The notes: generated by a model from the sequence alone, not told the origin. A stretch of DNA of 64,000 nucleotides from a virus (IMGVR_UViG_3300033068_001920:1-64000), one strand, 5' to 3'. Counted from the stretch's first letter, positions 3,048 to 38,801 are shown. Program-made: numbers and translations.

Positions 3048-3124
3048 TGGTCGGGGTAGAGGGATTCGAACCCCCGACATCCTGCTCCCAAAGCAGGCGC
3101 GCTACCAGACTGCGCTATACCCCG
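3048..3124 (-). tRNA. tRNA-Pro (anticodon UGG)
   Basis: CGGGGTA...CCTGC TTTGGGA GCAGG...GGTTCGAATCC...TACCCCG ACCA; 77 nt. Confidence 0.96.
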
Positions 3125-3142
3125 CGATTCTGTTCGGTGTGA

Positions 3143-3430
3143 CTATGCCGCGCTGAGCTTTTCGTCCAATGCTTCGACCGGCGAGGCGCTGACGGCCCAA
3201 CCGACGACGGAGCAACCGAAGAACGAAACGAATTCGATTTCCCCTGTGTCGAGCCTGCAGACCATCCTTGCCCGGTACTGAGGAAGTTCGGCGACCATCA
3301 CGAATTCATCTTCGAATGAGGGCACGAACGGCACATTGACCGCTACCTCCACATCCGTGGCGATCGGCATGAACAGGCTCAGCACGGCGCGCCAGAATGG
3401 GCGCAAATACAGCGTTTCGACGCGAATCAT
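3143..3430 (-). CDS. hypothetical protein
   Basis: 95 aa ORF with SD. Confidence 0.55.
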   Translation of the reverse strand: MIRVETLYLRPFWRAVLSLFMPIATDVEVAVNVPFVPSFEDEFVMVAELPQYRARMVCRLDTGEIEFVSFFGCSVVGWAVSASPVEALDEKLSAA

Positions 3431-3443
3431 GAGGTTCCCCTGA

Positions 3444-3596
3444 TTATGGGACGATGGCTTCGGCCAGCGTCACGAGCGCGCCCAGCGTCACGGCGCAGAC
3501 TGCCACGGATACGCAGCCGTCGATCGCCCACTGCGCGATCTTGGATCTGGCCGGCGTCGGCGGCGGATAGTCGCGGCAGGGTTGCGGGCCGATCAT
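3444..3596 (-). CDS. small membrane protein
   Basis: MIGPQPCRDY... with hydrophobic C-terminus; ATGA coupling to the upstream ORF. Confidence 0.45.
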   Translation of the reverse strand: MIGPQPCRDYPPPTPARSKIAQWAIDGCVSVAVCAVTLGALVTLAEAIVP

Positions 3597-27737: not shown

Positions 27738-28177
27738 ACCTCCTCCTCATCCCATCCGCCGCCGTCCTTCTTGGGCCTCGGATAGGCGACCTTGAACACA
27801 AAGGGGTACATCGCGGCGGCCACCTTCATCTTGACACGGGCATCGTCCAGAAAAAGCGCCTTTGCGCCTTTCACGTCGATCATTTCCAAGACGTTGTCCG
27901 CAGGCAAGATCGCGAAGTCCACGGTCAGAAACGTGTTGTCGGCGAGCCTGAGTTTGATGCCTTCAAATTGATACCAAAGGATCTTGCCGGCGGCCTTGAG
28001 TTCGGCTAGGTAAGCGTCGTAGCGCGATTCGGTCTTGTTCATCTCGCCGGTCTTGAGACGGCCGAGCGCCTGCATTCTCTGCTGGCCGGTGGGCTTCGCC
28101 GGCGGCGAGGCAACCGGCGCCACGCTGCGCTTCTGCAGTAGCCGCGCAAGATCGTCCTCGGACATCCGCACGCTCAT
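27734..28177 (-). CDS. PD-(D/E)XK nuclease (DUF1064-like, putative resolvase)
   Basis: NKTESRY...VDFAIL...IDVKG. Confidence 0.75.
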   Translation of the reverse strand: MSVRMSEDDLARLLQKRSVAPVASPPAKPTGQQRMQALGRLKTGEMNKTESRYDAYLAELKAAGKILWYQFEGIKLRLADNTFLTVDFAILPADNVLEMIDVKGAKALFLDDARVKMKVAAAMYPFVFKVAYPRPKKDGGGWDEEEV

Positions 28178-30951
28178 GCCGCGCCTCGCCGAGCGTCCAG
28201 CATGTCCACCTCGCGCTGAACGCGGTCAAGTATCCAAGAAACACAAAGCACGGCCCACGAGTTGCCGATCGCCTTGTACCGCGGGCCGTCGGCCGCCATG
28301 GCATAGACCTGGGCCTTGCCGTCTCCGCATTTCACCGCGAAGCGGTAGGCCTTGTCTCGGGGGCCGCTGCTCCGCTGCAGCGCTTCGGCCATGCTGTCGA
28401 AGACCGGGATTGTGGCTTTCACCTTCGCCAGCGGCTTGGGCTTGCCTTTCCGGATCGGGATCAGCGTGTGGTCTGGATGGATTCCCTGTAGGCGCTCGCA
28501 CTCTCGCGGGGTTAAGCGTCGAACGGCCATTCCATGGGTGGCGATCGGCGCCGCTCTGGATCGGTCCGCACTGGTCGTCAGCGGTCTTGCAGCATCAGCG
28601 ATCTCAAAAGTCCCGTTCTTGTAGTCGTCTGCCATGAACGCGACCGCCACTTGCCCGCCGGCATTCGCATGCGACCCACTGTGCCCCATCGCGCGAAAGG
28701 TCGGCGCCACGTCGCCAGCGTCGCCAGCGTCGCCGCCATGATCTTTACAGGAAAATGCGATGACCGGGACAAGATGTGCGTTTCCCCCAGGCGAATCTCC
28801 CCGAGAGCAACGCGTTTGAGTGATTTCACCCGTGACAGATTGGTTATATGTGTCGAAGGCTATCGGCACCATGACGCTCGGCCCAGAGGACAGGCCGTCG
28901 CCGCTCCGCGTCCCAAGGGTCGCAGCGACATCGCCCGTGATCTTGCCGTTGTACGTGTCGGTGCCCACCATGACCGGAATCAGTGGCGTCCCGCGCCCGG
29001 TACCGTCCTCGCTTGCGTCGAAACCGTCCGCGCGCAGCGTGTGCGTCGGCCCGTCGTACGCCACGGTTAAGTGGCCAGCCATCGCATGATCTACGTCAGC
29101 ACCCCCACCTGCGGCTCGCAAGGTTCCTGCTGTAAGCGGGATATCATCTGTGCTGTAACCACCATGCTGACGAGAGCCGCCTGCAATGGTGCAGGCAACG
29201 TCTTGCGCCTCTTTTCTGCTCGGCGCAGTATCCCGGCGCACGCCTTCGGACTCAAAAAGTATTCTTCCGGGACTGAGTCCGTCTCTAGCACTTGCGACAA
29301 CGAACACACGCTCGCGTCGTTGGGCCAAGCCGAAATATTGGGCATCAACAACCCGCCATGCGACTGTCCGCCGGGGGCCAGCAACAACACCTGCGACTGG
29401 CCAGCACGGAACGTGCACACCGGTGTCTTTTTTCCAGCGCCAGTGGGTAGAGGACCGTCCCGGTTTAGGTCGTGGGCCGGGTTCAATTGGATCCCGATCT
29501 CCGGCAAGCCCAGCAAGGAAGCAACCGAAAGCGTTGTCGTCGGTACTGAGGCATCCGGGTACGTTCTCCCACTGCACGATGCAGGGTTCGTCTCCATCGG
29601 CGATTCGAACATCGTCAATTGCATCGGCGATCTCGCAGAACGTCAGGGACAGCGCGCCCCGGGCGTCGGTAAGGGAATCGCGGTTACCCGCGAAGCTGAA
29701 GGCTTGGCAGTTGTGAACGACGACACCGTTCAGGATGTATGAGTTGTCGTCCGCAACTTCAATGTTGAAGACTTCCTGTTGCCCAACCTCACTGAAGTTG
29801 GTCACGCTGCGCAGAAGGTAGTTGTGCCTGACCCTGGATTTGCGCGAGGTGGCGCGGTCAAAGCCGCGGACTTGGAACCACTCTCGCTGATTAACGGTTC
29901 GGCCCTCTATGACTTTCGTAGGCGTAACCTTAATCCGGGCCACGGATGCGCTGTACCCCTCGGCATTCAGAAGATCCGCCGCACCGTAGGCCAATGACCG
30001 GCTGGTCGTGGCGATTTGAACGCCGCTCTTGATTTTGCTGCCGTCTGTGTCGAGGTAGCCGCGAAGGATTTCAGCGCGAAGCGGATGTCCGAGCACCCAC
30101 GCAGGGAGGTTTTTGTGGTACGCGAGGCGCCCAAAGTTCTCCTCCAACCAGTTAGCGAATCGAGTGTCATTGATCGTGACCCGAACCACTGATCGCTTTT
30201 CGCAAATGGAGTGACTGAAGTCCTCGCCAACAACCTCCAGCATCCTCTGGTATTTGGCCGGGTTCAGACTGAGGATAACCGCTCTCTTCGTCTTGCCCTT
30301 CCACTCCCGGATGTGGCCGTCACCGAGGTACATGCCAGCGAGATACATCGCCTGCCGCTGGTCGAACTCCGCGGATACCGCTTGCCCGGTGGTCTCGCCG
30401 TACTGCGTCATGGCGCACCACATGCGACCCGGCATTTCCGATGCCTTGACCCACTCGGGATCGGGGCAGTGCTCGACCCTCGCGTAGGCGTTGCCGCGCT
30501 TGGTACTCTGGTTTCGGAAGGCGACCGACAGGAACGGATGGTCGGGCGTCACCGTGATCGGTTCGCGGATTCCAACCGCATTGAACTCACCGACCGTCGC
30601 CAACTTCGAGCCGACCGCAAGGACAGGCTTCAGTCGCCCCTTGTGCGTCATGACGAGATCGCCGACCCGGACATGCTCTAGTGGGCGATACCCGTATTCG
30701 GTCAGAACCAGATGGCCTGCGGTGAAGCAAGGCGTTCCGCCGGTAAAGAACGGCGGCGCTTCCATCTCTCGGCTGCGGATCCTCGCAGGAATCGCGCGCA
30801 TGTCTCCAACATTCGGGACATCCGGCCAATGATGGGCAAGGACTTCTGAGGGGAACGCTTCGATCTCGGACAGCCACGCCGCCTTCCATCCGAGATGGCG
30901 CGAGGCCAGGCTCATTGCTTCGACGCCGCTGCAACAACTTCCGAATCTCAC
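28174..30951 (-). CDS. DNA cytosine-C5 methyltransferase containing an intein
   Basis: Motif I SCCSGVE, IV GGTP|CQAFS, VI WENVPG, VIII QRRERVF, IX RRLTPRECERLQG, X KAIGNS. Confidence 0.92.
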   Translation of the reverse strand: MRFGSCCSGVEAMSLASRHLGWKAAWLSEIEAFPSEVLAHHWPDVPNVGDMRAIPARIRSREMEAPPFFTGGTPCFTAGHLVLTEYGYRPLEHVRVGDLVMTHKGRLKPVLAVGSKLATVGEFNAVGIREPITVTPDHPFLSVAFRNQSTKRGNAYARVEHCPDPEWVKASEMPGRMWCAMTQYGETTGQAVSAEFDQRQAMYLAGMYLGDGHIREWKGKTKRAVILSLNPAKYQRMLEVVGEDFSHSICEKRSVVRVTINDTRFANWLEENFGRLAYHKNLPAWVLGHPLRAEILRGYLDTDGSKIKSGVQIATTSRSLAYGAADLLNAEGYSASVARIKVTPTKVIEGRTVNQREWFQVRGFDRATSRKSRVRHNYLLRSVTNFSEVGQQEVFNIEVADDNSYILNGVVVHNCQAFSFAGNRDSLTDARGALSLTFCEIADAIDDVRIADGDEPCIVQWENVPGCLSTDDNAFGCFLAGLAGDRDPIEPGPRPKPGRSSTHWRWKKDTGVHVPCWPVAGVVAGPRRTVAWRVVDAQYFGLAQRRERVFVVASARDGLSPGRILFESEGVRRDTAPSRKEAQDVACTIAGGSRQHGGYSTDDIPLTAGTLRAAGGGADVDHAMAGHLTVAYDGPTHTLRADGFDASEDGTGRGTPLIPVMVGTDTYNGKITGDVAATLGTRSGDGLSSGPSVMVPIAFDTYNQSVTGEITQTRCSRGDSPGGNAHLVPVIAFSCKDHGGDAGDAGDVAPTFRAMGHSGSHANAGGQVAVAFMADDYKNGTFEIADAARPLTTSADRSRAAPIATHGMAVRRLTPRECERLQGIHPDHTLIPIRKGKPKPLAKVKATIPVFDSMAEALQRSSGPRDKAYRFAVKCGDGKAQVYAMAADGPRYKAIGNSWAVLCVSWILDRVQREVDMLDARRGAA
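29091..29624 (-). CDS. nested alternative-frame ORF inside the C5 MTase (putative second subunit)
   Basis: +1 frame; SLSQVLETDSVPEEYFLSPKACAGILRRAEKRRKTLP resembles the post-motif-VIII segment of C5 MTases. Confidence 0.6.
   Translation of the reverse strand: MQLTMFESPMETNPASCSGRTYPDASVPTTTLSVASLLGLPEIGIQLNPAHDLNRDGPLPTGAGKKTPVCTFRAGQSQVLLLAPGGQSHGGLLMPNISAWPNDASVCSLSQVLETDSVPEEYFLSPKACAGILRRAEKRRKTLPAPLQAALVSMVVTAQMISRLQQEPCEPQVGVLT
29710..30729 (-). mobile_element. intein (340 aa) with LAGLIDADG homing endonuclease
   Basis: Starts CFTAGHLVLT, ends NGVVVHN followed by Cys; internal LAGMYLGDGH and LRGYLDTDGS. Confidence 0.95.
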
Positions 30952-31749: not shown

Positions 31750-32512
31750 GGTGGTTCCCCTGCTTGTTGTTCTGGACGTTCTGGTACCAGGCAGCCTTGA
31801 AGCCCTGCCAATTGTTCTCGGCGGAAATATGCACCGCCTTCGCCGGCGTGATTCCTGCCTTCACGGCTTCGGCCTTCACCCCGTCCCATGCGGTTTGCGT
31901 CAGCGGTGCCTTCTTCGCCTTCCTGACGATGAACCAATCTGCGGCGTGTTGGCGATCAACTCCTTCGGCAACGATATCGTCGATGGTCAGCGGTGGGGGA
32001 TCGTCAGACCTCTTCGGCTTCGCGCCACCCAATTTTGAATCGCGCTCAGCGCCATCTTTATTGGCTTTCTTCTCTTGATGGTTAAGTGACGTATTGGGTG
32101 CATCTCCTGCACCCCGTTCTGTCGTGGGATGCACCCCGTTCCCATCATCAGATGCACCCCGTTCCCCTTCGCGAGGTGCATCTGTTGCACCCGGTTTTGA
32201 CCGAGGTGCATCTGTTGCACCCCGTTCCATCGAAAGGTCGTAGCACACCGGGCGCCGATCGGCTCGGTCGATATAGGCAGCAGCGATCGCTTGATTACCG
32301 CGCCGAATCAACCCGTGCTGCTCCAGTGAGTCTAGGCGGGAACGAACGGTACGTTCTGACAGACCCGTGTCCGCCGATAGCGTCGCCGCCGAAGGAAATG
32401 CGCCACGTCCGTCCGCGCCGGCGTAGTTTGCGAGGCATAGCAGTACATGCCTCGATGGCGAATCATTGACTTGCTTCTGGGCCATCGCCCAAGACATAGC
32501 TTGAACGCTCAT
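31649..32512 (-). CDS. lambdoid replication initiator (O-like, N-terminal HTH)
   Basis: MSVQAMSWA...LLCLANYA...FPSAATLSADTGLSERTVR; internal iterons. Confidence 0.88.
   Translation of the reverse strand: MSVQAMSWAMAQKQVNDSPSRHVLLCLANYAGADGRGAFPSAATLSADTGLSERTVRSRLDSLEQHGLIRRGNQAIAAAYIDRADRRPVCYDLSMERGATDAPRSKPGATDAPREGERGASDDGNGVHPTTERGAGDAPNTSLNHQEKKANKDGAERDSKLGGAKPKRSDDPPPLTIDDIVAEGVDRQHAADWFIVRKAKKAPLTQTAWDGVKAEAVKAGITPAKAVHISAENNWQGFKAAWYQNVQNNKQGNHHGTSNSGRRESEAERVERINREHDEREHAAGMC
32040..32227. repeat. iteron replication origin inside the O-like gene
   Basis: TGCACCCCGTTC at 32108, 32130, 32153 and 32216, variant at 32186; adjacent AT-rich tract at about 32040-32095. Confidence 0.85.
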
Positions 32513-32934
32513 GCGCCGGTCTCCAATACAGCGAAGTCGCTGCGGATGACCGCAGGGAACAGTTGGATGTATGGCCCGAACCCAGCGGGGTTCACGATCA
32601 TCAGTCCAGTTTCAGTAATGATGCTATGAGAGCACTCGCCATCCAATAGATCGAATACCTGTTTCAGTTCGGCCGGCTCCATTCGGAAGAATTCCCTGGA
32701 CTGGCATATCCGGTTCGTGGCGAACGTCTCGTGAGCGCAGCGCTCAAATTTCGACGGATCCAACACCTCAGCGTAGTAGGCAACGATGAAAGGCGTCGGC
32801 ACTCCGGTCGTTCCCGACAATTCAGCCGCTCTCTGCATTGGTGCCCTAGTGGTGTGGCCGATCTTGTAGATGCCGGGCATTGACTGATTCGCCAGTACGT
32901 AGACGAATCCGTAAAGATTGTTGTTTGCGCTCAT
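32509..32934 (-). CDS. GIY-YIG nuclease (T5orf172-like)
   Basis: GFVYVLAN..MPGIYKIGHT...GVPTPF...REFF. Confidence 0.88.
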   Translation of the reverse strand: MSANNNLYGFVYVLANQSMPGIYKIGHTTRAPMQRAAELSGTTGVPTPFIVAYYAEVLDPSKFERCAHETFATNRICQSREFFRMEPAELKQVFDLLDGECSHSIITETGLMIVNPAGFGPYIQLFPAVIRSDFAVLETGA

Positions 32935-33086
32935 GCTTCCCCAATGGTCCAAATAGAAAACGCACCCAACCCGTTGGACTCGGGCTGTCCCCCGGTGATC
33001 AAGCCGGGGTTAGGGTGGCGCGGTTATACAAGGTTGGTCGCCTACAGTGCCAGCTTGGCGGATACAAGTTCAAGGGTCACATCACG

Positions 33087-33290
33087 TCACGGGCTTGCCA
33101 GACCCGGCTCAAATACCCGGAGGAAGTGCTTTGTGCTGCTCACGATAGGCATTTTCTGCCCTTCGCGCCAGAGCACGAATCCGTCCACCACGGCCATCAC
33201 CTTGATGAAAGCCAATCCACGTTCATGCATTTCTTGACGGATCCACTTGCTGCCGGCTCGGATCCCGGCAGACCCTTTATGCTTGGCCAT
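33087..33290 (-). CDS. hypothetical protein
   Basis: MAKHKGSAG...; coupled. Confidence 0.55.
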   Translation of the reverse strand: MAKHKGSAGIRAGSKWIRQEMHERGLAFIKVMAVVDGFVLWREGQKMPIVSSTKHFLRVFEPGLASP

Positions 33291-34125
33291 CGGAATCTTC
33301 CGCAGTGGTGATGAGGTCCGCTGCGGCCCCGCGCTTCGCCTTGGCGCTGGCCAGCGCGATCGCGTACATGTCTGGGTGCTGCACATCGAACGTCGGCATC
33401 TGATCGGACTCGACCCAGTGGCCGCGGACGCTGTGCCGGACCAGCCACCGCTGCGTCCAGGTGCTCGCGCTGCAGCCCTCCTCGACGATTTCCTTGGCGG
33501 TGATGCTGCCCTGCACCCGCAGACGCGCCAAGACGCGAATGGCGGCCTGCTTCCATGGCGTCAGCTGCACCGGGCAGGGTACGCCCGCGGGAACCTCCGG
33601 GATGCACGGCGGCAGCGGTACGCGCGCCGGCGGGTTCCAGTCGAAGAACGCCGTTCGGGCAAACCAGAACCGTCCGTCGGCCGGGTCCGCGGCCCGCTGG
33701 TCTTCCTCGAGTAGTCGGCGAAGGCCGAAGGACGCGTCGATGCGAGAGGAAAACGTGGCGCGATCGTATTCGTATCCGTACTGCGGCGCCCAGACCGGGA
33801 CGCCCAGCATCTCGAGCAAGCGCGCGATGCCGGCATTGGCTTCGGTGATGCTGCGCACGATCACCAAACGATGGTCTGGACCGTCCTTGGCATACCGGTT
33901 CCACGAATCTGTTGGGATGATTTGCTCGGCGACCTTGGCATTGAGCACCAGTTTAGCTTCAACGCCGATCTGGCGGCCGGAAGCGTGCACGGCCAGGATG
34001 TCGAATCCACCGGTCTCCGGGTAGCAGACCCAGCCCGGTTGTGCGTTGAATTCCGCGATGAAGATCGCGCACAGCGCCGTCTCCGTCGGGATCAGTTCCT
34101 TGATCTGGTCCGCAGTGATGTTCAT
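33277..34125 (-). CDS. putative PD-(D/E)XK nuclease-fold protein
   Basis: YPETGGFDILAV...IGVEAKL. Confidence 0.65.
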   Translation of the reverse strand: MNITADQIKELIPTETALCAIFIAEFNAQPGWVCYPETGGFDILAVHASGRQIGVEAKLVLNAKVAEQIIPTDSWNRYAKDGPDHRLVIVRSITEANAGIARLLEMLGVPVWAPQYGYEYDRATFSSRIDASFGLRRLLEEDQRAADPADGRFWFARTAFFDWNPPARVPLPPCIPEVPAGVPCPVQLTPWKQAAIRVLARLRVQGSITAKEIVEEGCSASTWTQRWLVRHSVRGHWVESDQMPTFDVQHPDMYAIALASAKAKRGAAADLITTAEDSDGQA

Positions 34126-35258
34126 ACGACCACCGTGATGCGCTCAGCGGCGCGAGTCAAGCCGGTGTAGAGATGCTTCGCCGCGTCCTCGCGAAAGGCG
34201 TAGGACTCATCGAATAGGACGACATTGTCGAATTCGGAACCTTGGGCCTTGTGGACAGTGAGCGCGTAGCCGAAGGTGAATTGCTGCAGCCCTTTCAACT
34301 GCTCCCACGCCAGTTCCTTTTCGGCGCCGCGGAAGAACTGCTCCGGCACCTTGACGCGGACGGTGCGCGCGCCGGGGTCGTCGATCGACCTTGCCTGGAT
34401 CTTCAGAACCCCGGTTTTGCTCTTAGCATCGACGCTGATCGCCTCCCACAACCCGCCGTTCAGTAGTCCCAGTTGGCGGTCGTTGCGCAGGCAAACCATC
34501 CGGTCGCCCGGGACAGGGTGATGCGGAACTTTGATGCCCTGACGATCGTGGAGTTCGCGGATCCGTGAGTTGAAATTGTGCCGCGTCTTGTTCAGGCCGC
34601 AGAGCACTTGGTCGGCGGACATGACGAGCTCGCGCATGGCGTCCTTGCCGATCTCGCATCGACGAACGACTCGGCTGTCGCCGTAGCGCCCGGCATGCAG
34701 AGGCCTGCCCTCACGGACATCCATGCTCATCCGGATGATCGGATTATCGGCGGCCTGGCGGTGAACCTCCGTCAGCATGATGTCCGGCTCGGCGTTGATG
34801 AAGAATCCCTCGCCCTTCACCGGCGGCAACTGCGCCGGGTCGCCGAGTACCAGAACCCGCGTCCCGAACGAAAGCAAGTCCTTGGCCAGATCCTCGCCCA
34901 CCATCGACACCTCATCGATCACGATCAACTTGGCGTCGGCGGCAGAACTATTCGGGTTCAGAACGAACCGCGGCGTCTCTTCGGCATCGGTGCCTTCGGG
35001 GATGTAGATCATGCTGTGAATCGTGGACGCGCCGGCGCAACCCTTCTTGCGCAAGACCAAGGCTGCTTTTCCGGTGAATGCAGCAAACTGCACGGAACCC
35101 TTGACCTTCTCTACCACGGCCTTGGCGAGCGTCGTCTTGCCGGCGCCGGCGAACCCGAACAACCTGAATACTTGTGGGCCATCCGGATCCGCAAGCCAAT
35201 CGGCGACGGCCTTGAGTGCAGCCTCTTGCTGCGGGCTCCACGTCGGGGCCGCGGTCAC
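34122..35258 (-). CDS. SF1B DNA helicase (RecD/Dda-like)
   Basis: GFAGAGKT, IDEVSM, GDPAQLPPV, TEVHRQ, TVHKAQGSEF, YTGLTRA. Confidence 0.92.
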   Translation of the reverse strand: MTAAPTWSPQQEAALKAVADWLADPDGPQVFRLFGFAGAGKTTLAKAVVEKVKGSVQFAAFTGKAALVLRKKGCAGASTIHSMIYIPEGTDAEETPRFVLNPNSSAADAKLIVIDEVSMVGEDLAKDLLSFGTRVLVLGDPAQLPPVKGEGFFINAEPDIMLTEVHRQAADNPIIRMSMDVREGRPLHAGRYGDSRVVRRCEIGKDAMRELVMSADQVLCGLNKTRHNFNSRIRELHDRQGIKVPHHPVPGDRMVCLRNDRQLGLLNGGLWEAISVDAKSKTGVLKIQARSIDDPGARTVRVKVPEQFFRGAEKELAWEQLKGLQQFTFGYALTVHKAQGSEFDNVVLFDESYAFREDAAKHLYTGLTRAAERITVVV

Positions 35259-36670
35259 AGCAGCACCGCCTGGCGTGTCGAATCTTCGGCTTCGATCTTC
35301 GCCGCGAGCACCGTGGCGACCGCATGTTCGCAGCGCACCTGCGCGGTCGCGACGGAATCGGAATCCCGCTCGATGCCGACGACGCTGAAGCCTTCCAAGA
35401 TCGCGCCCTTGCCTGTGCTGCCGGAGCCGAAGAACGGATCCAGAACGGTCCCGCCCGGCGGCGTGATCAGGCGGCAGAGGTAGCGCATCAGGTCCGTCGG
35501 TTTCACCGTCGGGTGGGTGTTGCCCTTGCGCGCGCCATCCGCGTTCAGATTCTCCGCGGCGCGCAGCGTGCTGCCCATCTTGAACTGCGGGCCTGGGTCT
35601 TCCATGCCTTCGTTGCGATCAAATCTGCTCGCCTTAGCTGCGTAGAAAAATCGTGCAGCGCTGCCGCCGCCATCGCGCTGGTCGCTTGCGGTCCTGCCGC
35701 CGTAGTCGCCGTAGGCATTCGCGGTCTTGGCGCTAGCTTCCGTTCCGCGGACGGGCGCCACTGCGCCACTCGCTTGGGGGAACGCCGCTTGCACTGCATC
35801 GCTGCCGTCCGTGATCAAATTTGCTGGCCAGCGACCGATATTCGGGTCATGGCCAGACTCGCTTCCGGTCTGTGCTCCGTAAGCACCATAAATCCTATCC
35901 TGTCCTTTTCTGGGCGACGCCGGAACATTCTTGTTTGTGCCGACCCGACACCCGTCGATATTCAACGCCCCGGTGCCGTTCGCGATTACGTTCGCCGCGA
36001 CGGTGCCTTCCAGAGGACGACGCGCGAGGATGATCGGTTCCCATGCGGGCTTCAGGGCGGTTCCCCATCCTTCCCATTGGCGGGCGGCATCGGTGGCAGG
36101 AATTGTTAGATCATTGCATCGCGATGGAGTGGACCACCCGCCCTGTGTCGTCGTGCCACTTGTCCTTTTAGCCGCATCGGGATGAATACCAACCACCTCT
36201 CGTTCCGCGCCAGCCGCCTTGTCTATAGCCCTGCTCACATCCATTGACTTCGGGAAGCCGGATCCATAGCACCATGCCAGCAACGGCGCGCCACCGTCAT
36301 CGTCATGCGCGTAGCCGATGCTGTCGCGCAGTTCGAACCCGGCGAGGCGTATCGCCATCGACATCATGTCCATGCTGCGGGTGCCGGCGAAGGCGAGCAT
36401 GTGCCCGCCAGGTTTCAGCACGCGCAGGCATTCGCGGAACACCTCCGGGCCGGGAACCCATGCGTCCCATGTCTTGCCCATGAATCCCTTGCCTTTCGGC
36501 AGGTACGGCTCGCCGGCGAGCCATGCGGTCAGACACGCGACGACCTCGGCCGGCTTGTGGTCGCTGAGACCGTAGGGCGGATCGGTGACGATGCTATCAA
36601 TGCTGCAATCCGGCAGCGTGCGCAGCACTTCCAAGCATTCGCCGTGGTGGATGACGAAAGGCGCGGTCAT
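35255..36670 (-). CDS. DNA N6-adenine/N4-cytosine methyltransferase (beta class)
   Basis: VTDPPYG; HPTVKP; LDPFFGSGSTG. Confidence 0.93.
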   Translation of the reverse strand: MTAPFVIHHGECLEVLRTLPDCSIDSIVTDPPYGLSDHKPAEVVACLTAWLAGEPYLPKGKGFMGKTWDAWVPGPEVFRECLRVLKPGGHMLAFAGTRSMDMMSMAIRLAGFELRDSIGYAHDDDGGAPLLAWCYGSGFPKSMDVSRAIDKAAGAEREVVGIHPDAAKRTSGTTTQGGWSTPSRCNDLTIPATDAARQWEGWGTALKPAWEPIILARRPLEGTVAANVIANGTGALNIDGCRVGTNKNVPASPRKGQDRIYGAYGAQTGSESGHDPNIGRWPANLITDGSDAVQAAFPQASGAVAPVRGTEASAKTANAYGDYGGRTASDQRDGGGSAARFFYAAKASRFDRNEGMEDPGPQFKMGSTLRAAENLNADGARKGNTHPTVKPTDLMRYLCRLITPPGGTVLDPFFGSGSTGKGAILEGFSVVGIERDSDSVATAQVRCEHAVATVLAAKIEAEDSTRQAVLL

Positions 36671-38256
36671 GCAACCACCTCAGCGGTAGCCGGTTTGTTG
36701 TCGTTCGCCGGCGCCGGCATGCAATCCATGTAAGCGCCGATCACTTCGGCCGCCACGGCAGGAACGATTGCGTTTCCGAATGCTCGCAGCTTTCCGACGC
36801 GCGCCAGCACGCCATGCGCCAGCATCGGGATCATTTCGATTTCGGTTTGCGCGGCATCGTCTCCGGCGCGCATTCCAGCCATTCCGGCGGGAAGCCCATC
36901 AGCCACGCCACGAATTCGGGTGCCAACGCGCCGGGCTTTTCCGTCGTGGCCGACGATCCAGGCGTACGACTGCCAAGGTGATGATAGACAGCTGGTGCCA
37001 GCGTCATCCCCTTGTCCGGCGTGTATTTCTGCGCGCCCTTGTGCGCATCTGCTGCCGCTGCCGTCGGCCACATCGCCAACGCATGCGCCCGGATCGCCAC
37101 CAGCCCCGCCGAGTTGCCCGCTTCGTTGTTGCCGTTCTTCGCTGGCGCGAGCGATGTCGGTGTCGGACATAGCGCAGCATGCGCTGCCACTTCGAGCGAT
37201 ACCTGCTTGTTCGGCGCGGCAATCCGCCGCAACGCAGCTTCCCTGCTGCTGCACCGCCATTTGCTGTCCCCCGCGCACGGCGTCGGCCACAAACCACAGT
37301 CGGTCCCTTCGATGGGGCGCATCGACGGCACAACATGGAACAATCGCCGCCCCGCAGGTGTAACCGAGTGCGTGTAGATCAGATTGCACTCCGTCGAGCC
37401 AATCGGCCGTAGTCGGCGCTCTAGCGCCGCTGCGAACCGCCCCTGGAAGCTCTCGTTCCGCTCCGCTTCCTTGGCCTTCAGCGCATCCATGATCGACATG
37501 GCGCGATCCAGTCCCCACGTCAGCATCATCACATTCAGGCCGAACGCGATCACCCGAACATTGCTGATCGTGTAGCCCAGCTCCGGCACTATCCGATCCA
37601 GCGAAGGCGTATCCCAATCCCTCGGGCCGCCAGACAGCCTGAGTTGCATCCCCGTCAGTTCGCACAGCCCCAAGTTGATTCGCGTCGTCAGCTGCTCTCT
37701 GAAGTCCTCCAAATCGAAGGCCAAGCCTTTCTGCTTCGCGCGCTTCTTCGCATCCGCGATCATGTTCCCGGCCCGGTTGGCAGTCCGCGATGATTTGGCG
37801 ATAGCTTTCGAGCGTTCCGGGTTTTTCTCTCGCCAGGCTTTCGAGCGCTCGTTTGAGCGAGGGTCCTTCTTCACGTTTTGCTCCCGCCGCGACGGCGACT
37901 TGCTCACCGAACACGACGGCAGGCCGTCTTGCTGCGATGAGTCTGAGGAAATGGGGCCACAGATGCCGATCGTCATCGGTTCCGCGCTGCTTTCCCGCGA
38001 CGCTGAACGGCTGGCACGGCGCGGAGCCGGTCCACAGTTCGCGGTCGTCTGGCCATCCAGCAAGGCGAGCTGCGAGGCTCCATCCGCCAATGCCGGCGAA
38101 GAAATGGCATTGCGTGTATCCGGCAAGATCGGAAGGTGCCACATCCACGATTGATCGTTCATCCACTTCCCCGGCCGGCAGATGCCCGGCGCTGATTAGG
38201 TTGCGCAGCCAGGCGGCCGCATAGGGGTCGAATTCGTTGTAGTAGTGGGCGCTCAT
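36667..38256 (-). CDS. C5 DNA methyltransferase large (alpha) subunit lacking motif IX
   Basis: FFAGIGG, APCQPFS, FGEQV, PHRRDRLWF, LRAFGNAIV; long non-MTase insert between motifs VI and VII. Confidence 0.9.
   Translation of the reverse strand: MSAHYYNEFDPYAAAWLRNLISAGHLPAGEVDERSIVDVAPSDLAGYTQCHFFAGIGGWSLAARLAGWPDDRELWTGSAPCQPFSVAGKQRGTDDDRHLWPHFLRLIAARRPAVVFGEQVAVAAGAKREEGPSLKRALESLAREKPGTLESYRQIIADCQPGREHDRGCEEAREAERLGLRFGGLQRAADDANQLGAVRTDGDATQAVWRPEGLGYAFAGSDSAGAGLHDQQCSGDRVRPECDDADVGTGSRHVDHGCAEGQGSGAERELPGAVRSGARAPTTADWLDGVQSDLHALGYTCGAAIVPCCAVDAPHRRDRLWFVADAVRGGQQMAVQQQGSCVAADCRAEQAGIARSGSACCAMSDTDIARASEERQQRSGQLGGAGGDPGACVGDVADGSGSRCAQGRAEIHAGQGDDAGTSCLSSPWQSYAWIVGHDGKARRVGTRIRGVADGLPAGMAGMRAGDDAAQTEIEMIPMLAHGVLARVGKLRAFGNAIVPAVAAEVIGAYMDCMPAPANDNKPATAEVVA
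36831..37874 (-). CDS. nested beta subunit: HNH-like nuclease domain fused to MTase TRD and motif IX (frame is open from the ATG at 38162)
   Basis: GGGAG-N6-GTG at 37874; CELTG...PSLDRIVPELGYTISNVRV; WPTP repeats; LAPEFVAWLMGFPPEW. Confidence 0.75.
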   Translation of the reverse strand: MKKDPRSNERSKAWREKNPERSKAIAKSSRTANRAGNMIADAKKRAKQKGLAFDLEDFREQLTTRINLGLCELTGMQLRLSGGPRDWDTPSLDRIVPELGYTISNVRVIAFGLNVMMLTWGLDRAMSIMDALKAKEAERNESFQGRFAAALERRLRPIGSTECNLIYTHSVTPAGRRLFHVVPSMRPIEGTDCGLWPTPCAGDSKWRCSSREAALRRIAAPNKQVSLEVAAHAALCPTPTSLAPAKNGNNEAGNSAGLVAIRAHALAMWPTAAAADAHKGAQKYTPDKGMTLAPAVYHHLGSRTPGSSATTEKPGALAPEFVAWLMGFPPEWLECAPETMPRKPKSK

Positions 38257-38801
38257 GCAGCCACCGGCGCAAGCGTATTGACCCATCCCGGAACGAATGC
38301 GCCAGGGATGCCGCATTGGAGGAGGCACCGCGCGTTTTCCTTTCCGTACGCGATTAGGACGCTTGGCGCTCCGCCATTCGCGTCGGCGCGTCGGCCATCG
38401 ACATGGTGGAAGTGGAGCCGGCCCTCAAGGAACAGGAGCGCGTCCGCTTTCATCCAGACGTGCTCAAAGAACATGGCCGTTTCAGTGCGCGCGAAGATCA
38501 GCGCGATCGCGTTGCGGTGCTCGGCGCAACGGGCAAGCCATGCCGCAGCTTCGCGGCCATAGGGCGGATTGCAGAAGACCTTGCCCTCCCAGTCGCGGGC
38601 AAGGCCGTTGTCCAGCATCGTGAAGTGGTTCTTGGCCATCTCCCAAGGCCGGACGATGGGAGCGCATGGATCCAGGTCGAATTGACCAAGTGCTTGGAGG
38701 ATTTCAGGCGGCGTCAGCCACTCATCCTTGCCCATTCGATGGGACTGGTGTCCGCCGATACCGCGGCCCTGCGACTCGGGCAAGACTGAACTGCTGTCCA
38801 A
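38253..38801 (-). CDS. phage N6-adenine methyltransferase (Dam-like)
   Basis: DEWLTP, FDLDPC, VFCNPPYG, ARTET, FLEGRL. Confidence 0.9.
   Translation of the reverse strand: MDSSSVLPESQGRGIGGHQSHRMGKDEWLTPPEILQALGQFDLDPCAPIVRPWEMAKNHFTMLDNGLARDWEGKVFCNPPYGREAAAWLARCAEHRNAIALIFARTETAMFFEHVWMKADALLFLEGRLHFHHVDGRRADANGGAPSVLIAYGKENARCLLQCGIPGAFVPGWVNTLAPVAA

Follow-up and report, generated by a model that had tools for sequence, protein, structure and literature searches.

Two described systems come closest to the locus analysed here, a gene for a cytosine-5 (C5) DNA methyltransferase that lies in a stretch of viral DNA of 64,000 nucleotides (IMGVR_UViG_3300033068_001920:1-64000, hereafter the window) belonging to an IMG/VR virus record of 78.9 kb. 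The first is M.EcoHK31I, a heterodimeric C5 methyltransferase whose β subunit is encoded wholly within the gene of the α subunit in another reading frame (Lee, Kam and Shaw 1995, as reported in PMC2836561), and which is active as two polypeptides produced from separate plasmids (PMC2836561). The second is the ShiLan domain, an out-of-frame HNH in an actinobacteriophage DNA methylase (Arsenault, Gosselin and Gogarten 2025, Genes 16:178, PMC11855218), for which it was left open how the HNH is translated (PMC11855218). In the window the two arrangements meet in a single gene, and our analysis as a whole makes it likely that a homing-type HNH gene was absorbed into a nested α/β phage C5 methylase. 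The nested methylase and the hidden HNH have each been published separately; their combination is a well-supported variant and not a new principle, and the ShiLan publication of 2025 lowers the novelty of an out-of-frame HNH with an open host frame. What is particular to the window is the in-frame fusion of HNH and β, which would let the nuclease use the start codon of β.

The likeness to ShiLan is extensive. In both cases an HNH gene lies within a phage DNA methylase gene in another frame, the host frame is free of stops and reads as a poorly structured loop, no signature of an intron or intein was recognised, related methylases carry the element in a disjunct pattern suggestive of homing, and the methylase module also bears intein and LAGLIDADG elements. 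The ShiLan HNH, however, is a self-contained open reading frame (ORF) that runs from a GTG start to a TAA stop of its own and shows canonical HNH and zinc-finger features, whereas in the window the HNH frame coincides with the pre-existing nested β, is fused to it without a stop (no stop separates HNH and β core in any locus compared), and can use the conserved start of β. The window differs further in that its host gene is a two-frame α/β C5 methylase, its nuclease is of a different family (phrog_3322), without the His and PacI-like, its methylase relatives come mainly from Proteobacteria and not from Mycobacterium, with the insert-bearing contigs being metagenomic, and the selection for openness is quantified. 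With M.EcoHK31I the window shares a β encoded entirely inside the α gene in an alternative frame, as well as internal ATGs of the β frame that can start translation. M.EcoHK31I, on the other hand, has its target-recognition domain (TRD) in α and a small β and forms part of a restriction-modification system, whereas the enzyme of the window is a phage orphan methylase in a row of three methylase genes, its WPTP modules (the presumed TRD) are in β, and this β overlaps α from about codon 32-38 on and bears an HNH-like domain.

The Nested α and β Frames

The α ORF (38256..36667, minus strand, frame A, ATG start, 529 aa plus stop) encodes the catalytic chain of a C5 methyltransferase, and matches Pfam PF00145 (E 6e-16) and phrog_363 (E 1.6e-67). 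Its translation contains, in one chain and all on the minus strand, motif I (FAGIGG, 38086..38103, for binding of S-adenosylmethionine, AdoMet), motif IV (PCQPFS, 38002..38019, with the catalytic Cys81), motif VI (FGEQV, 37897..37911, the last α motif ahead of the insert), motif VIII (APHRRDRLWFVA) and motif X (GNAIVP, 36760..36777); the columns of motif I are invariant in the α alignment, as are P80, C81, Q82, P83 and S85 of motif IV, G117, E118, Q119 and V120 of motif VI, and G494 and N495 of motif X. The AlphaFold2 (AF2) model of α is confident at residues 1-125, 286-330 and 491-512, the last including a helix at 499-512, and has the fold of an AdoMet-dependent enzyme, resembling M.HhaI (Foldseek E 3.5e-4, prob 1.0) and M.HaeIII (also prob 1.0), whereas the per-residue confidence (pLDDT) is below 50 at residues 159-283, which make up most of the insert, and at 332-428, where β reads as WPTP modules. 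What α lacks is a TRD and a motif IX between motifs VIII and X; motif IX was not found in the α frame, and a motif-IX-like segment is present instead in the +1 frame.

This second frame (frame B, +1 of α) forms the β ORF, 443 aa plus stop at 38162..36831 on the minus strand. Residues 1-94 of β are a shifted reading of the DNA of α motifs I-VI (FFAGIGGWS, for example, reads SSPALADGA), residues 95-241 form the HNH-like domain, and residues 242-443 comprise three W/C-P-T-P/A modules and end in the motif-IX-like segment LAPEFVAWLMGFPPEW (36879..36926, minus strand), in which W420, L421 and G423 are invariant and their neighbours nearly so over 29 sequences. Residues 224-436 match phrog_1008 ('DNA methyltransferase'), and phrog_31772 ('DNA methyltransferase') is matched as well; the assignment of motif IX follows from the pattern match WLMGFP and from these PHROG family names. 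A dual-coding stretch lies at 37285..37401 (minus strand), which α reads as WLDGVQSDL...APHRRDRLWFVA (motifs VII-VIII) and β as RLRPIGSTEC...TPAGR...VPSMRP (the start of the β core), and both readings are conserved, with nearly invariant columns in the α and in the β alignment.

For comparison, about 200 related loci were collected from genomes, viral contigs and metagenomes, the samples spanning JGI, ENA, Logan and IMG/VR. The nesting is family-wide: of 147 distinct loci, 145 have an α ORF covering the N-terminal, middle and C-terminal α blocks with the β core in its +1 frame, in a Vibrio phage relative the offset of β is likewise +1, and in Paenibacillus phage Shelly the nested β is annotated by RefSeq as an 'internal gene'. 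The original prediction, made from the sequence of the window, of a nested two-frame C5 methyltransferase of the M.EcoHK31I kind is in this respect borne out, the motifs being divided between the two frames. By analogy, β would supply the TRD and motif IX and assemble with α.

β appears to be initiated near α codon 38. Three candidate starts are available in the window, namely ATG 38162, ATG 38144 (the family-conserved position) and GTG 37874. The family-conserved start is an ATG formed by α codons 38-39, and the Asp at α codon 38 is encoded by GAT in 94 of 112 cases, a choice that creates the ATG in the +1 frame, whereas elsewhere in this N-terminal region GAT makes up 39% of the Asp codons; a GGAG-type motif lies 4-17 nt upstream of this ATG in 55 of the 92 loci that have it. 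The β frame is open from α codon ~20-36 in 123 of 132 loci, and over α codons 36-124 it is open in 93% of loci against ~62% expected, which is a weak test, as shuffles expect 0.5 stops. The original prediction had placed a start of the nested product at GTG 37874, behind a GGGAG. Both elements are present in the window (37872..37885, minus strand, with GGGAG at 37885..37881 and a 6-nt spacer, in the β frame), and the contig's own gene call, P0004, has 347 aa, the length predicted for an HNH-β product from this codon, which makes it a possible start peculiar to the window; the GTG is not conserved among homologues, and as a family-wide β start it was rejected in favour of the ATG at codons 38-39.

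The number of WPTP modules varies. Relative to the nearest insert-free allele (locus L055), the window carries an extra module of 120 nt (40 codons) at 37161-37280 (minus strand), flanked by near-identical TGGCCGACG/CCG and TGTCCGACA/CCG repeats, and locus L040 has about eight modules in a β of 680 aa; recombination at the repeats that encode WPTP seems to add and remove modules. When a relative was sought that combines TRD and motif IX with the α frame in one chain, the sole candidate came from a Phormidesmis metagenome-assembled genome (L035:2179-3293), where the last WPTP module and motif IX share the frame of α motifs I-VIII and motif X lies in another; its frames are re-phased, either as a natural variant or through an assembly indel, and it was set aside as uninterpretable.

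An Insert Open in Two Frames

Between motifs VI and VII the α chain is split by an insert. EQV ends at α residue 120 and WLDGV begins at residue 286, leaving 165 residues between them, as against some 8-10 in insert-free homologues (consensus GEQVAAAVGKxWLDGV), in agreement with the roughly 165 residues, in place of about ten, that had been counted from the window. Alignment of the DNA with the empty allele L055 gives a net insert of 474 nt at ~37408..37886 (minus strand; the span measures 479 nt, as 5 of its bases have aligned counterparts in the empty allele). These 474 nt amount to 158 codons, and both frames are therefore preserved. The α reading of the insert is a low-confidence stretch rich in Asp, Glu, Arg and Gly, whereas the β reading is the HNH-like domain.

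That both frames stay open across the insert, as claimed for the window, holds throughout the 12 independent insert-bearing loci whose DNA was compared (the window, L040, L041, L043, L045, L126, L128, L146, L218, L219, L220 and L221): the α frame is stop-free through 157-190 codons of insert in 12 of 12, at insert GC contents of 43-64%, and the HNH frame continues into the β core without a stop, again in all 12. When the synonymous codons of the HNH frame were shuffled and the stops in the α frame counted, 2.6-11 stops were expected across the 12 loci (2.7 for the window), and the probabilities of observing none were 0.029 (window), 8.5e-4, 2e-3, 6.5e-4, 2e-3, 5e-5, 4e-4, <5e-5, <5e-5, 0.04, 1e-4 and <5e-5. 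The lowest values belong to L146, L218 and L221, and the inserts of L146 and L221 have GC contents of 43% and 47%. The third frame contains 6-20 stops in the same stretch, and in six free-standing homologues of the domain, all from GenBank phages, 3-20 stops interrupt the corresponding frame, as expected. Set against the shuffles, the twelve open α frames imply that α is evidently translated through the insert, and the codon choice indicates that selection on synonymous sites holds both frames open.

A further stretch of this kind may be present in L218, whose α frame (742 aa) is also open through a second extra segment of ~150 codons just before motif X (L218:3083-3616), inside which a separate gene of 129 aa is called at 3090-3479; it may be another read-through insertion in the same methylase.

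Fold and Candidate Active Site of the Inserted Domain

The identity of the inserted domain (37440..37880, minus strand, β frame) becomes apparent from phage protein families and from its predicted structure. Residues 95-236 of β match phrog_3322 'endonuclease' (8.7e-22), phrog_1035 'endonuclease VII' (2.6e-12) and phrog_3118 'HNH endonuclease' (1.4e-6); no match to Pfam or NCBIfam was found, and a profile search of the PDB gave only chance hits. The AF2 model of the domain is of high confidence (pLDDT 95.1, predicted TM-score 0.82) and consists of four helices followed by a ββα unit, with strands at 92-96 and 108-112 and a helix at 113-146 in the numbering of the domain, which corresponds to the ββα-metal fold of His-Me finger nucleases. 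Its best solved match is PacI (3m7k_A; Z 8.3, root-mean-square deviation 2.6 over 86 residues, 17% identity), followed by the Gme HNH nicking enzyme (4h9d; Z 6.1, Foldseek E 0.011, prob 1.0), with further structural matches to McrA, the HNH domain of Cas9, Hpy99I and T4 endonuclease VII. The structure prediction that had been called for thus upholds the HNH-like fold proposed for the nested frame.

The active site is unusual for an HNH enzyme. At the end of the first strand, where the catalytic His of a DH pair would stand, the domain has an Arg (SLDRI; R190 of β), and this D95-R96 pair is nearly invariant over 58 sequences. In the same alignment the invariant residues are C, S, G, Y, N, N and G, among them Y103, located in the inter-strand loop 97-107, N107 and N116. 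Conservation and the model together nominate D189 (37598..37596), Y197 (37574..37572), N201 (37562..37560) and N210 (37535..37533; all minus strand, β numbering), the D95, Y103, N107 and N116 of the domain, as the candidate active site.

The original prediction had read DR in place of DH as a sign that cleavage is uncertain. The Arg does occupy the His position, but the doubt is softened by PacI (PDB 3m7k/3ldy; His-Me finger group 20, Jablonska et al. 2017, PMC5714182), which has no general-base His and uses instead a Tyr of the loop between the strands, its metal being held by Asp and Asn (PMC5714182, PMC4081073). Since PacI is likewise without the His and since an Asp, a Tyr and two Asn are conserved in the window's family, 'DR' need not mean inactivity: as in PacI, a loop Tyr, an Asp and an Asn would be available for one-metal catalysis. 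It is plausible but unproven, as judged from the model, that the domain is a PacI-like one-metal nuclease, and it might cleave DNA with the Tyr as general base. PacI, which belongs to a small and mostly viral group, a trait shared with the domain of the window, differs from it in several respects: the two have 17% identity and no match at the sequence level, PacI has two Cys4 zinc sites, of which the domain of the window shows no counterpart beyond one conserved Cys (in relatives a CxxC...CxxC ribbon is found at the N terminus instead), and PacI is a restriction enzyme that works as a free homodimer. It should also be borne in mind that some groups of His-Me fingers are inactive DNA binders (PMC5714182).

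Relatives and Patchy Distribution

Full-length frame-B homologues carrying the insert have identities of 33-87%, and an exhaustive search with the insert domain returned 6329 representative clusters at E <= 1e-3. These relatives are of two kinds, free-standing proteins of ~110-225 aa, often with the N-terminal CxxC...CxxC ribbon, and long forms; a motif-IX-like segment follows downstream in at least 53 of the 99 long forms listed. The free-standing phrog_3322 genes are 26-41% identical to the insert (tblastn) and share with it the conserved SxDR...GY...N...N...WG. They are found directly upstream of, and overlapping the start of, conserved genes, namely terL (three cases), a DNA polymerase gene, a structural gene and a dCMP deaminase gene, just as the insert lies directly 5' of the β core, and Ralstonia phage records contain up to three matching places each. 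In contrast to the insert, each is a gene in its own right, encoding 120-200 aa between a start and a stop codon of its own, and its -1 frame is full of stops; the insert has lost its stop and mostly its start, and its -1 frame is open. An ATG at the ancestral start position of the element is kept only in L126 and L128, so that in most loci the domain could be made only from the start of β.

Most members of the methylase family are without the insert, and its carriers are scattered. In a tree of the α blocks the eight insert carriers included are not monophyletic; their placement requires 4 changes, and well-supported branches make at least 3 of these unavoidable. Nor does the similarity of an insert to that of the window follow the similarity of its α: L043 and the window share 85% identity over the N-terminal block of α and 47% over the insert, and for L040 the two values are 72% and 63%. 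There are, moreover, two insertion points, one before WLDGV and the other after WL(DG), in L128 and L221. Scattered carriers, two insertion points and incongruent similarities fit a mobile element.

Database labels do little justice to either frame. Six free-standing homologues, from phages BB8, PaMx28, AAT-1, DU_RP_I, Leszy and RHph_X2_24 (L212-L217), are labelled inconsistently, the labels on such proteins being hypothetical, endonuclease, HNH restriction endonuclease and 'Srd decoy of host sigma factor', the last of which is doubtful because of the HNH-type fold. In seven loci fetched via their β proteins (L040, L041, L043 and L218-L221) the gene callers had recorded β, with α uncalled or fragmented, and the catalytic chain is consequently under-represented in protein databases.

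Proposed Origin and Alternative Explanations

We propose that the locus encodes a phage orphan C5 methyltransferase of the nested two-polypeptide type, with a catalytic α and a β consisting of WPTP modules that resemble target-recognition modules and of a motif-IX-like end, and that a gene from a phage family, widespread and made up of small HNH-type proteins that are otherwise free-standing, would have inserted into the loop between α motifs VI and VII, a spot that is also the 5' edge of what would be the functional β core. The insert being a multiple of three, in the β frame and free of stops, the nuclease-like domain would be made as an N-terminal extension of β. HNH-β would then be translated from the start of β and not from any conserved start belonging to the element, while α would be translated straight through the insert DNA, in the -1 frame relative to HNH, with selection at synonymous sites keeping out stops; the outcome in α would be a loop of ~160 residues at the methylase surface, probably disordered. 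The element would spread, or would have spread, by homing into the conserved site that encodes GEQV/WLDGV, and α and β, by analogy with M.EcoHK31I, would together form the active enzyme.

Several observations weigh against this reconstruction. Among the loci compared, a near-identical pair of phages with and without the insert was not found, and, on the sequences at hand, one old gain followed by several precise losses of the insert is possible. The window's own probability of an open frame, 0.029, is modest, and the case rests on the homologues, some of which are mutually related. A clear Shine-Dalgarno sequence was not seen in the window before ATG 38162 or ATG 38144. The domain has neither the canonical catalytic His nor the Cys4 zinc sites known from HNH enzymes, and the PacI-type reading of its active site rests on the fold match (Z 8.3, 17% identity) and on residue conservation, not on a residue-by-residue superposition. 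As for β, no sequence match was found in Pfam, NCBIfam or the PDB, where profile hits were only by chance, and the Atlas model of an insert-free β homologue (P0056), modelled alone, is of low confidence; the role of its core as supplier of TRD and motif IX is for these reasons assigned by analogy.

Some of these points are shared by an alternative that we regard as unlikely but worth serious attention, in which the HNH-like domain is a domesticated module, a DNA-binding or anchoring part of β that is neither a nuclease nor a mobile element here and is inherited vertically with occasional loss. Such a history would sit well with the stop-free fusion to β in all 12 loci and with the motif-IX-like segment of at least 53 of the 99 long relatives listed, as well as with the missing His and zinc sites, the existence of inactive DNA-binding His-Me fingers (PMC5714182), the decay of most element-borne start codons and the lack of a recent gain event among the loci compared. 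It accounts poorly, however, for the invariance of the PacI-type set (Asp, loop Tyr, Asn, Asn), which the fused forms share with the free-standing ones, and for carriers that are scattered on the methylase tree at two insertion points with incongruent insert similarity; most family members, besides, lack the insert.

The original prediction had offered two readings of a nuclease-TRD fusion: a compact complex resembling a restriction-modification system, or a homing nuclease that invades the methyltransferase gene and breaks neither frame. The first found no support. The second is favoured by the selection for an open α frame, the patchy distribution, the two insertion points and the free-standing relatives at positions typical of homing endonucleases. 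A more ambitious reading, in which HNH-β is a working enzyme whose nuclease is aimed by the target-recognition modules of the methylase, and which methylates phage sites together with α and nicks or cuts unmethylated DNA or insert-free alleles, is a speculation to which we assign little probability. Were it true, a single dual-frame gene of 1.6 kb would constitute a self-protecting homing or restriction-like module, and the nested β start would explain how 'hidden' HNH genes get translated.

The canonical order of a C5 methyltransferase (motifs I-VIII, TRD, IX, X) would be restored if the ribosome passed from frame A to B after motif VIII and back to A after motif IX, producing by programmed frameshifting one chain in which β is no separate protein and the insert is skipped or forms a loop. 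Two directed shifts would be needed, and the open β frame in 123 of 132 loci, the codon-38 ATG formed by biased Asp codons and the frequent GGAG motifs speak for independent initiation; M.EcoHK31I, moreover, is active as two polypeptides from separate plasmids (PMC2836561). We regard this explanation as highly improbable.

Even less credence can be given to removal of the insert before function, as a group I/II intron or an intein, which would make the open α frame irrelevant. HNH ORFs are common in phage introns, and the second C5 methylase of the window's phage does carry an intein. No Rfam family was matched at E <= 1 in 36400..38500, although divergent introns can escape Rfam, and no Hint or intein Pfam domain was hit at E <= 1 in either frame; an intron would have no need of a stop-free host frame, yet all 12 loci keep it open, even those with insert GC of 43-47%. 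The HNH frame, in addition, runs on into β without a stop, and the α-frame reading of the insert is a low-confidence coil.

Chance or artefact, that is, off-frames left open by high GC or by assembly errors, is strongly disfavoured and next to negligible: off-frame ORFs are common at the 63% GC of this region and the window alone gives P 0.029, yet the arrangement recurs in loci of many independent samples, holds at insert GC of 43-47% with P <5e-5, and is matched neither by the third frame, with its 6-20 stops, nor by the free-standing homologues, which are not open in the corresponding frame.

The locus is a clear natural example of ~470 nt of DNA under three constraints at once, having to encode a folded nuclease domain, to be read through without a stop in a second frame and to remain continuous with the nested gene, and the selection is measurable at synonymous sites across distant relatives. 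It also suggests an answer to the translation question raised by ShiLan, in which an out-of-frame HNH rides on the start of a pre-existing internal gene. For annotation it is a warning, as callers record one of the two frames and, on metagenomic contigs, often call β and miss α. Should the domain be active, the HNH-β fusion would provide a compact scaffold of nuclease plus specificity.

Gene Neighborhood

The methyltransferase gene lies on the minus strand, within a run of replication and modification genes. Directly upstream of α is a Dam-like N6-adenine methylase gene (38801..38253, minus strand) and directly downstream an N4/N6 methylase gene (36670..35255, minus strand); further members of the run are an SF1 helicase, a T5orf172 gene and a second C5 methylase. 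ATGA stop/start overlaps at 38253-38256 and 36667-36670 chain the Dam-like, the α/β C5 and the N4/N6 methylase genes, an arrangement of the sequence that suggests translational coupling of the three methylases.

Several kinds of selfish element have colonised the methylase module of this phage. The second C5 methyltransferase (28174-30951, minus strand, 925 aa) contains Hint_2 and LAGLIDADG_3 domains, which mark it as the carrier of an intein with a homing endonuclease. The T5orf172/MUG113 gene (32509-32952, minus strand, 147 aa) may likewise be mobile and nuclease-like; it is located between an HTH_36 gene and an unassigned ORF of 282 aa (33277-34125), the latter lying ahead of the helicase. 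Finally, the N4/N6 methylase, at 471 aa long for its family, matches Pfam in two separate stretches, the better of which covers residues 380-443, and it might hide another insertion.

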